Shown here piece after piece: positions 4,294 to 21,484 of a stretch of DNA of 64,000 nt; the stretch's first letter is position 1; each line of letters starts with the position of its first letter. This DNA comes from Escherichia phage FH3. The notes under the pieces are model-generated. The model ran no database searches. It was not told the origin of the DNA and worked only from the letters and a program-made list of their open reading frames with translations. A program made the position numbers and the translations under genes. Location: the sequence record OR886155.1, one strand, 5' to 3'.

Positions 4294-4555
4294 TAGCTAC
4301 TCGCAAGTCTTCATTAGCACGAGCAAGGCGTAATACTTCATTGTTGAGGCTCTGAAGACGCTTGTTTCTATCTTCAACTTGCATAATAAGATCATTAAGT
4401 ATTACTTTAACTTTCTCATTATACATCTCATCCACTCGGACTAGAGATTTATACATTCTTTCCCAGCTTGCTGCTTTGTTTCTGAGAACAATAAATCCTA
4501 TAACGCTGATAATTAAACAGCTTACAAAAAGGAATTTATATACTTCTAAAGTCAT
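4259..4555 (-). CDS. membrane-anchored coiled-coil protein
   Basis: N-terminal hydrophobic segment (FLFVSCLIISVIGFIVL) then heptad-like charged region. Confidence 0.35.
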   Translation of the reverse strand: MTLEVYKFLFVSCLIISVIGFIVLRNKAASWERMYKSLVRVDEMYNEKVKVILNDLIMQVEDRNKRLQSLNNEVLRLARANEDLRVAIAKQQEINNEA

Positions 4556-19287: not shown

Positions 19288-20346
19288 ATGGCTAATCCAA
19301 CTTTATTTGTATCGTATGACCAGAATGGTAAAAAACTTTCTTTTGCTAACTGGATTTCTGTTCTGTCCCCTCAGGATACCCCGTTCGTATCTATGACCGG
19401 TAAAGAGTCTATCAACCAGACTATCTTTAGCTGGCAGACCGATGCACTGGCAAGCGTTGACGGTAATAACGCACACGTCGAAGGCTCTCGTGCTGAAGAC
19501 GGCGAAATGAAACCGACCGTTATCAAATCTAACGTTACTCAGATTCTGCGTAAGGTTGTTCGTGTTTCTGATACTGCTAACACCACCGCTAACTACGGTC
19601 GTGGTCGTGAACTGATGTATCAGCTGGAGAAGAAAGGTAAAGAGATCAAGCGTGACCTCGAGAAAATCCTTCTGTCCGGTCAGGCTCGTACCGACGTTCT
19701 GGCTGACCAGTATCTGACTAACTCTGCAACTGATCCTGCTGTTGTTGGTCTGAATGACACCCATGCAGCTCGTAAGACTGGTGCATTCCAGTTCCTGTGT
19801 GCTCACGGTGGTTTGTCTGGTGGCGTTGTTGACAAGACTAAGAATGGTCCTGCTGACCCGGATACTGGTGCAGTAACTGTTAAAGTTGCACAGAATGCTT
19901 CTAACCCGACCACTAACATTGGTTTTGATGAAGCTGATATCTTTGATATGACTCTGCAACTGTATACCGCTGGTTCTGAAGCAGATATCATCATGATTAA
20001 CCCGGCTCATGCTAAGATCTTCGCTGGTCTGCAAGAAAATACTCAGGGTTCACGTAAGCGTATCTTTGAGAACACCAAGCAGTTCATCTACGAAGTTAAC
20101 AGCATCACTGACCCGCTGGGCCAAAGCTACAAAATCATCGTTAACCGTTGGATGCCTACCGATGCAGTTTACTTCTTCCGTAGCGCTGACTGGACTCAGA
20201 TGGTTCTGCGTGCTCCGAAACGTACTGAACTGGCTAAAGACGGTTCTTACGAGAAGTGGATGATTGAAATGGAAGTTGGTCTGCGTCACCGCAACCCGTA
20301 TGCTTCCGGCGTTCTGTTCACTGCTGCGGGAAAGGTGGCGGCGTAA
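19288..20346 (+). CDS. major capsid protein (short form)
   Basis: 352 aa, position after scaffold, followed by a strong terminator. Confidence 0.8.
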   Translation: MANPTLFVSYDQNGKKLSFANWISVLSPQDTPFVSMTGKESINQTIFSWQTDALASVDGNNAHVEGSRAEDGEMKPTVIKSNVTQILRKVVRVSDTANTTANYGRGRELMYQLEKKGKEIKRDLEKILLSGQARTDVLADQYLTNSATDPAVVGLNDTHAARKTGAFQFLCAHGGLSGGVVDKTKNGPADPDTGAVTVKVAQNASNPTTNIGFDEADIFDMTLQLYTAGSEADIIMINPAHAKIFAGLQENTQGSRKRIFENTKQFIYEVNSITDPLGQSYKIIVNRWMPTDAVYFFRSADWTQMVLRAPKRTELAKDGSYEKWMIEMEVGLRHRNPYASGVLFTAAGKVAA

Positions 20347-20870
20347 CAGTAGACAGTGTGACTGTTAGCCCTGCGTCTTTAGCAAGTCTAGAGACAGGGG
20401 CTACTCGGCAGTTCACTGCAAGCGCGGAGAAAAGTGATAGTTCTACCGAAACAACTGGCTTTACTTGGTCAGTGACAGGAGGTGGTTCTATCACTCAGTC
20501 GGGTTTGTATACTGCTCCGAGTGCGTCTCAATCCACTGATGTATCCATTACTGCAACTTTAGAAGGTGTTTCTGGTACGGCAACCATTTCCGAAATTGTT
20601 GCTCCTGCTCCTACTATTGTGAGTCGTGGGCCAATTACAGGTAAAGTAGGTGGTACTACCACTAACTTCAACACCATGTTTACTGTAACTAATTCTATTG
20701 CTGATGATTACACACTTGTTGTAACTCCCGCAGAAGCTGGTACAATAAGTGCTAATAATTCGTTAAAATTAGATGCTGCTGCAAGTGGCGAAGTTACTGT
20801 TCAAGCAAGTTTGACAGCCAACCCGTCTATCAATGCAACATGCACTTTTACTGGTGTAACACCTGCTTAA
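19288..20870 (+). CDS. major capsid protein long form with C-terminal Ig-like (BIG2-type) domain, predicted by -1 frameshift
   Basis: Downstream ORF has no ATG (GTG only) and encodes an Ig-like domain; predicted fusion about 527 aa. Confidence 0.5.
20328..20334 (+). promoter_or_regulatory. -1 programmed frameshift slippery heptamer G_GGA_AAG
   Basis: X_XXY_YYZ heptamer in capsid frame, 10 nt before the capsid stop; the -1 frame is open from 20268 and continues into ORF 20358-20870. Confidence 0.55.
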
Positions 20871-20875
20871 AATCA

Positions 20876-20908
20876 GACCCTGCCTTCGGGCGGGGTTTTT
20901 TCGTTTTA
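20876..20908 (+). terminator. rho-independent terminator after capsid gene
   Basis: CCTGCC-TTCG-GGCGGG followed by TTTTTT. Confidence 0.6.
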
Positions 20909-20971: not shown

Positions 20972-21484
20972 ATGGCAATGCCAGATTTCAGAGAAGCTTT
21001 TACCTATGATCCAAATACAGGGCATCTTTTCTGGTCTATGAGTAACATCTTTAATAAGCAGAAAGGACAACGTGCCGGGTGTATTGGCGACAGAGGTTAT
21101 CGTAAAGTGACTTTTAAAAAGAAATCATATTTAGAGCATAGGGTCATAGCTGAACTCTTTCTTCCTAAGGTAGAAGGGAAGGACTGTGTCAACCATAAGA
21201 ATGGAATAAAAGACGATAACAGGATTGAGAATCTAGAGTGGTGTACTCAACAAGAAAATTGTACACATGCTTTTGAAACAGGCCTCTCAACACCTAGGAG
21301 TCTTGAGGATAACCCTAATTCCAAACTCACTAAAGAGCAAGTTCTCTTTTGTTTGGAGAACTACAAACCGAGAGATAGAGAGTTTGGAGCTAGAGCCTTA
21401 GCTAGAAAGTTTGGGGTCTCTAAAAGCACAATATCTCTCATTACTAAAGGCGTAAACTGGAAGGAGGTTTATTATGATGCCTGA
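20972..21484 (+). CDS. HNH homing endonuclease
   Basis: HRVIAELFLPK...VNHKNGIKDDNRIENLEW motif; inserted between capsid and tail genes. Confidence 0.75.
   Translation: MAMPDFREAFTYDPNTGHLFWSMSNIFNKQKGQRAGCIGDRGYRKVTFKKKSYLEHRVIAELFLPKVEGKDCVNHKNGIKDDNRIENLEWCTQQENCTHAFETGLSTPRSLEDNPNSKLTKEQVLFCLENYKPRDREFGARALARKFGVSKSTISLITKGVNWKEVYYDA

Follow-up and report, generated by a model that had tools for sequence, protein, structure and literature searches.

Two forms of the major capsid protein have reportedly been found in phage phiEco32, a result that is known second-hand through citing papers and goes back to the 2008 proteomics of Savalia. In 2014, the description of SU10 pointed out "a potential ribosomal slippage (GGGAAAG)" by which the Ig-like CDS10 would be joined to the major head protein, as in phiEco32 (PMC4281155). 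The same signal was described in Privateer in 2021, where two capsid bands were seen on SDS-PAGE and mass spectrometry detected the long form in virions (PMC7881722). Short and extended capsid forms were subsequently reported for YF01 and its group in 2023, many of the extended proteins being ~500–550 aa (PMC9965538). Joined capsid coding sequences exist in GenBank for YF01 and Privateer (WBF05044.1 and QIN94799.1), and the frameshift goes unmentioned in the SU7 and kuravirus genome-tracing papers.

Related recoding events are known beyond this group. Gene 10A/10B of the podophages T7 and T3 is also a capsid gene with a -1 frameshift near its end, producing a minor extended subunit at about 10%, and the T3 extension has been credited with an Ig-like domain (PMC9965538). 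The T7/T3 capsids are unrelated at family level to the one considered here, however, and their slippery sequence is a different one. The 10B extension of T7 is short. An identical heptamer, G_GGA_AAG, operates in lambda G/G-T at about 3.5% in E. coli (Xu et al., 2004, via PMC9965538), but in a tail assembly chaperone gene rather than a capsid gene, and its product displays no Ig domain. Big_2-type Ig-like domains occur more widely on virion structural proteins, often by way of programmed frameshifts (Fraser et al., 2006), and the passages of PMC9965538 and PMC7885116 that cite this work presume a weak adhesion role for them under the BAM model. Hoc of T4 differs in being a separate decoration protein, and an adhesion role for the Kuravirus capsid extension is only presumed.

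Here, a stretch of 64,000 nucleotides from Escherichia phage FH3 (OR886155.1; the window) was analyzed. Nucleotide matches and capsid-module synteny identify FH3 as a Kuravirus (phiEco32-like, C3-morphotype) coliphage, with identities over positions 19288–20900 of 98.9% to Escherichia phage 1-6af, 98.2% to ES17, 96.7% to phiEco32 and 96.2% to SU10. The major capsid protein gene (19288–20346, plus strand) has a zero-frame product of 352 aa with the HK97 fold, which matches Pfam SU10_MCP (E = 8.7e-77) and the PHROG major head protein (E = 1.2e-117) and is 99.7% identical to the phiEco32 major head protein. The frameshift described below is the orthologue of the published Kuravirus frameshift, and is in that sense already known. 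FH3 shares with phiEco32, SU10 and YF01 an orthologous capsid gene (96–99% nucleotide identity), the same heptamer and a homologous first Ig domain; the heptamer lies 9–12 nt before the stop codon in those phages and 9 nt before it in FH3. The phages differ in the length of the extension, which is 178 codons in FH3 as in phiEco32 but 543 in YF01, while the -1 frame of SU10 is broken.

The gene order of the Kuravirus capsid module (portal, small ORF, scaffold, capsid, adaptor, tail fibre) is present in FH3 and syntenic with phiEco32, SU10 and YF01, and the neighbors of the capsid ORF are a scaffold protein, an HNH endonuclease, an SU10-type adaptor (Pfam SU10_adaptor) and a tail fibre. The endonuclease, an HNH_3 homing-type ORF at 20972–21484 (plus strand; Pfam E = 6.3e-13) with a strong Shine-Dalgarno (SD) sequence, sits between the terminator of the capsid extension and the adaptor gene, its final 11 nt overlapping the latter, which starts at 21474. 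It distinguishes FH3 from phiEco32, SU10 and YF01, which have no HNH endonuclease at this position. Bas86 carries an annotated HNH endonuclease at the matching spot, and XT32 an unnamed ORF that is also 513 nt long, a possible counterpart by length and position. ARAGORN found no tRNA genes in the whole window (1–64000).

The 3′ end of the capsid gene reads ...ACT GCT GCG GGA AAG GTG GCG GCG TAA. The original prediction had placed a slippery heptamer G_GGA_AAG at 20328–20334, and this is borne out: the site, on the plus strand, has the form X_XXY_YYZ and is in register with the capsid frame, with GGA and AAG as zero-frame codons. It had also been put 10 nt before the capsid stop, which is right to within one base, the actual gap to the TAA (20344–20346) being 9 nt (20335–20343). 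The -1 frame is closed upstream by a TGA at 20265–20267 and is open, as had been claimed, from 20268 to the TAA at 20868–20870. The sequence arithmetic for a slip at the heptamer agrees with the ~527-aa product predicted beside the 352-aa form (349 + 178 = 527 aa). The predicted post-slip reading, ...AAGK-GGGVTVDSVTV..., is exactly the junction proposed earlier, and the expected junction peptide is AAGK/GGGVTVDSVTVSPASLASLETGATR. Counting ORFs of ≥100 aa from either strand, the window holds 26 in-register XXXYYYZ heptamers; the capsid one opens a -1 ORF of 178 codons and the other 25 open at most 30. As the only one of the 26 to open a long -1 ORF, the capsid heptamer is more than a chance occurrence.

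The -1-frame extension occupies 20334–20870 on the plus strand (178 codons and the TAA). Profiles, a structural model and the pattern of variation indicate that it consists of two tandem Big_2-type Ig-like domains, at about residues 4–88 and 91–178. The fold had been anticipated correctly, although a single BIG2-type domain was expected rather than a tandem pair. The match of the FH3 sequence to Pfam Big_2 (PF02368) reaches 16.9 bits (E = 0.0064), below the curated cut-off of 22.8 bits, but the first domains of orthologues exceed this cut-off with the same boundaries (28.3 bits for the NJ01 type and 36.9 bits for YF01), and the match to the PHROG "Ig domain containing protein" has E = 2.7e-75. 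An AlphaFold2 model built with 24 sequences has a pLDDT of 96.5 and shows two β-sandwich domains. Among solved structures, Foldseek ranks the tandem Big domains of LigA from Leptospira first for this model (8gyr; E = 3e-11, TM 0.57, 26% identity); lower hits are further tandems of Big_2, S-layer and Ig type, among them the Ig-like domains of the SU10 nozzle. By sequence alone, the extension had no significant match in the PDB, and the LigA match came from the fold search.

How is this frame entered? The conventional alternative is the GTG at 20358–20360 (plus strand), the start assigned by gene callers to a stand-alone "Ig domain protein" and, as the original prediction stated, the only start codon close to where the downstream ORF begins. 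Codon-position variation was computed over 21 distinct sequences. Before the heptamer it is highest at zero-frame third positions (0.142 vs 0.026 and 0.009), after it at -1-frame third positions (0.368 vs 0.178 and 0.148), and the -1-frame pattern is already there in the 23 nt between heptamer and GTG (0.269 vs 0.097 and 0.064). The GTG itself is probably not a real start. Its anti-SD duplex is worth only -1.5 kcal/mol, whereas 15 of 17 other gene starts tested range from -6.5 to -12.4, and in NJ01, YF01, Bas88 and KBNP1711-type relatives it is replaced by GTA or ATA with the ORF intact. Annotated starts of the Ig ORF are widely scattered between relatives. Alignment to the Big_2 profile begins at residue 6 after the junction in both FH3 and its orthologues, and the first Ig β-strand of the AlphaFold2 model comprises residues 6–12; the GTG encodes residue 9, inside this strand. 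An intrinsic terminator at 20875–20898 (plus strand), with a 10-bp stem containing six GC pairs and a T-run, closes the transcription unit of capsid and extension, and no comparable terminator (10-bp stem, clean T-run) was found between the capsid stop and the extension. The terminator after the extension is annotated as such in the SU10 record. These five independent lines (the switch in variation, the unconserved GTG, its lack of an SD, the start of the Ig domain before it and the position of the terminator) favor upstream entry into the -1 frame over initiation at the GTG, as far as sequence comparison can speak to it.

Relatives were collected from GenBank, IMG/VR and metagenomes, giving ~29 Kuravirus-like loci with some duplicates among them; a pattern scan of metagenomes returned 63 loci, only 10 of which were true relatives, the others being chance matches. 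GGGAAAG is present in the same register in all ~29 Kuravirus-like loci, and a -1 ORF of 178–545 codons follows it in all except SU10. The longest of these (457–545 codons) reflect repeated gains of extra Ig modules by the extension. In NJ01, YF01, SR02 and Bas86 a 3-nt insertion separates the heptamer further from the stop codon and leaves both frames intact, and the residues VTVD...TVSP of the extension, of which VTVD lies upstream of the GTG, are invariant among relatives. The Proteus phages YP1 and Privateer (the latter a Privateervirus of the Grimontviridae) have an SU10_MCP capsid protein that is ~57% identical, the same in-register heptamer at the end of the gene and an Ig-type -1 extension. 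They differ in that the heptamer directly adjoins the stop codon (0-nt spacer) and the extension, of 169 codons, is non-homologous to that of the Kuraviruses, with I-set and Big_2 domains in Privateer. The slippery site is absent in the more distant Aeromonas phages LAh_6 and APT65 and in Pseudomonas phage PaP3.

Other arrangements occur among these capsid genes. Salmonella phage pSal-SNUABM-01 encodes SU10_MCP and Big_2 in one in-frame protein of 597 aa, a natural fusion from which it follows that C-terminal Ig domains are tolerated in this capsid family. In pSal-SNUABM-01, ECO319P1 and Aeromonas APT65, two or three paralogous capsid genes stand in tandem, and it is the second capsid copy of pSal-SNUABM-01 that carries Big_2, joined in frame rather than by frameshift. 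In IMGVR_UViG_3300033688_000038, an in-register A_AAA_AAG (4421–4427) precedes the stop of a 55%-identical capsid gene by 3 nt; its -1 ORF of only 42 codons may be a different, short frameshift extension or a matter of chance.

SU10 is the exception within the group. A 1-nt insertion in its record (NC_027395.1, locus 2541–2600), just past the capsid stop, ends the -1 frame after 11 codons, so that the Ig ORF lies behind TAA..TAG in the zero frame of the capsid gene; PMC9965538 noted the break as well. The insertion may reflect a genuine loss of the extension or a mistake in sequencing. The SU10 cryo-EM map and gel show no extended form, no Ig density and no larger band (PMC9509320; PMC9965538). 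Taken with the broken frame, this implies that the extension is dispensable, at least in SU10. The published SU10 mass spectrometry lists a "9+10" entry with 22 peptides and 50.3% coverage, beside gp9 alone with 23 peptides and 78.1%. Since the residues covered are about equal in the two entries, "9+10" may hold gp9 peptides only and no Ig peptides, and its support for a fusion is weak; this reading fits the broken frame and the missing Ig density and larger band.

Does RNA structure assist the slip? Folding of 20335–20434 and 20310–20400 gave no stable structure starting 5–9 nt after the heptamer, and no Rfam frameshift element matches. Apart from the heptamer-enclosing stem-loop discussed next, which folding did return, the structures obtained begin at least 20 nt downstream. 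The stem-loop proposed for SU10 (CTGCTGC-GGGAAAG-GCGGCGG; PMC4281155) was considered as a stimulator and rejected; it holds the heptamer in its loop and so cannot exist while the ribosome decodes the slippery site. This heptamer-enclosing hairpin is also weakened in KBNP1711 and Bas88-type sequences. A weak alternative stem 9 nt downstream, UAACAGU:ACUGUUA, was seen by eye; it is AU-rich, is not predicted by folding and competes with a larger hairpin. Because no stimulatory structure lies at the classical 5–9 nt spacing, frameshift efficiency may be low. A stimulator is not obligatory: lambda G-T has the same heptamer and no defined stimulator (PMC9965538, citing Xu 2004). Given the lambda efficiency of about 3.5%, the heptamer by itself should yield a minor product.

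A conserved hairpin does occur further downstream, within the extension ORF, at 20358–20416 (plus strand; inner helix 20366–20403). It is supported by an RNAalifold consensus and starts 23–26 nt downstream of the heptamer. Across 16 distinct sequences 99.1% of cells are paired, vs 30–51% with slid partners, and compensatory changes are seen at two pairs (UA/GC/AU and GC/UG). At one compensated pair a synonymous change in a Ser codon covaries with an E/P/L/Q replacement. The MFE z at the hairpin is -2.4, and synonymous/third-position conservation there is only slightly raised. This looks like a real structure but is too far from the heptamer for a classical stimulator, and we do not claim it as one. 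It might nonetheless tune frameshifting from its non-canonical distance, one possible route being that it pauses a leading ribosome in the -1 frame so that a trailing ribosome is held on the heptamer (collision-type stimulation). Separately, the Ig domains might add to the mucin adherence of ES17. We consider these ideas unlikely. Neither appears in the literature examined, and the conserved distal hairpin may be unreported.

Taken as a whole, we are confident, on comparative grounds, that a long FH3 capsid form with Ig domains arises by -1 ribosomal frameshifting at G_GGA_AAG. The majority of ribosomes would stop at the TAA at 20344, giving the 352-aa major capsid protein, and a minority would slip back by one base while GGA occupies the P site and AAG the A site, the tRNAs re-pairing on GGG and AAA. 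These would read the -1 frame to the TAA at 20868 and produce a 527-aa capsid protein with two C-terminal Big_2-type Ig-like domains. Judging from lambda G-T (about 3.5%) and T7/T3 gene 10 (about 10%), efficiency is probably a few percent. The SU10-type head has 715 capsid subunits (PMC9509320), and at this efficiency tens of copies of the long form would be expected per virion. Built into the head as a minor subunit, the long form would give some capsomers Ig domains exposed at the head surface, and these domains may serve in adhesion.

The annotation of the group supposes something else, namely a separate Ig gene that starts at GTG 20358 and whose free 170-aa product would decorate the head by binding the capsid non-covalently. 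Most GenBank records, including those of the closest relatives of FH3, present two separate genes, the second labeled "Ig domain containing protein" or "hypothetical protein". The stand-alone proteins that public-database gene callers predict have 110–254 aa, the SU10 cryo-EM paper assumes a protein of this kind, and PHROG links the Ig ORF weakly to Hoc-like decoration proteins (E = 8.4e-4). Against this stand a GTG with no SD that is not kept by relatives that keep the ORF, annotated starts that vary widely, and a coding signature and an invariant VTVD that lie upstream of the GTG, where initiation would truncate the first β-strand. We regard a separate gene as very unlikely, and the claim of a programmed -1 frameshift is upheld over it by the conservation of the heptamer together with the switch in variation, the GTG evidence and the position of the strand. 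That analogous capsid extensions exist in other phages, as the original prediction stated, is a matter of record for phiEco32, SU10, YF01 and Privateer. Transcriptional slippage on GGGAAAG would put the fusion into the RNA itself; the resulting -1 shift, at the same place, would look identical in proteomics, and nothing specific speaks for such an origin. Productive transcriptional slippage requires longer homopolymer runs, about 7–9 A or T, and the runs here are only three bases, while the exact register for tRNA re-pairing (X_XXY_YYZ), a hallmark of the ribosomal mechanism, is kept in all lineages; we give this origin almost no credence.

Frameshifting at G_GGA_AAG, the reading preferred here, could also be real and yet inconsequential, the long form being a tolerated, low-level by-product without function that virions do not need or do not contain. 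SU10 is viable without an open -1 frame and its heads lack Ig density, and no classical stimulator was found. However, every lineage but SU10 has retained the heptamer together with a long -1 ORF that bears a signature of purifying selection, extra Ig modules have been gained again and again, and Privateer virions do contain the long form (PMC7881722). On balance a functionless by-product seems unlikely.

The literature already covers both the mechanism and the fact that it operates in this group, and the FH3 locus answers no open question in that respect. The value is partly one of annotation, since in these therapeutic-candidate coliphages the extension should be given as part of a joined capsid CDS. 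Mucin and heparan-sulfate binding by ES17 has been put down to its tail fibre, which keyword-retrieved passages of the ES17 paper describe without an Ig-like fold, and those same passages make no mention of a frameshifted capsid Ig extension (PMC7885116). A role of capsid Ig domains in ES17-like mucin adherence, and the widespread mis-annotation of the extension, may be unreported points. Close relatives of FH3 such as ES17 are being studied for gut decolonisation, and Ig domains, carried by a few percent of the capsid subunits, could influence how the phage adheres to mucus or cell surfaces and how well it persists in the gut.
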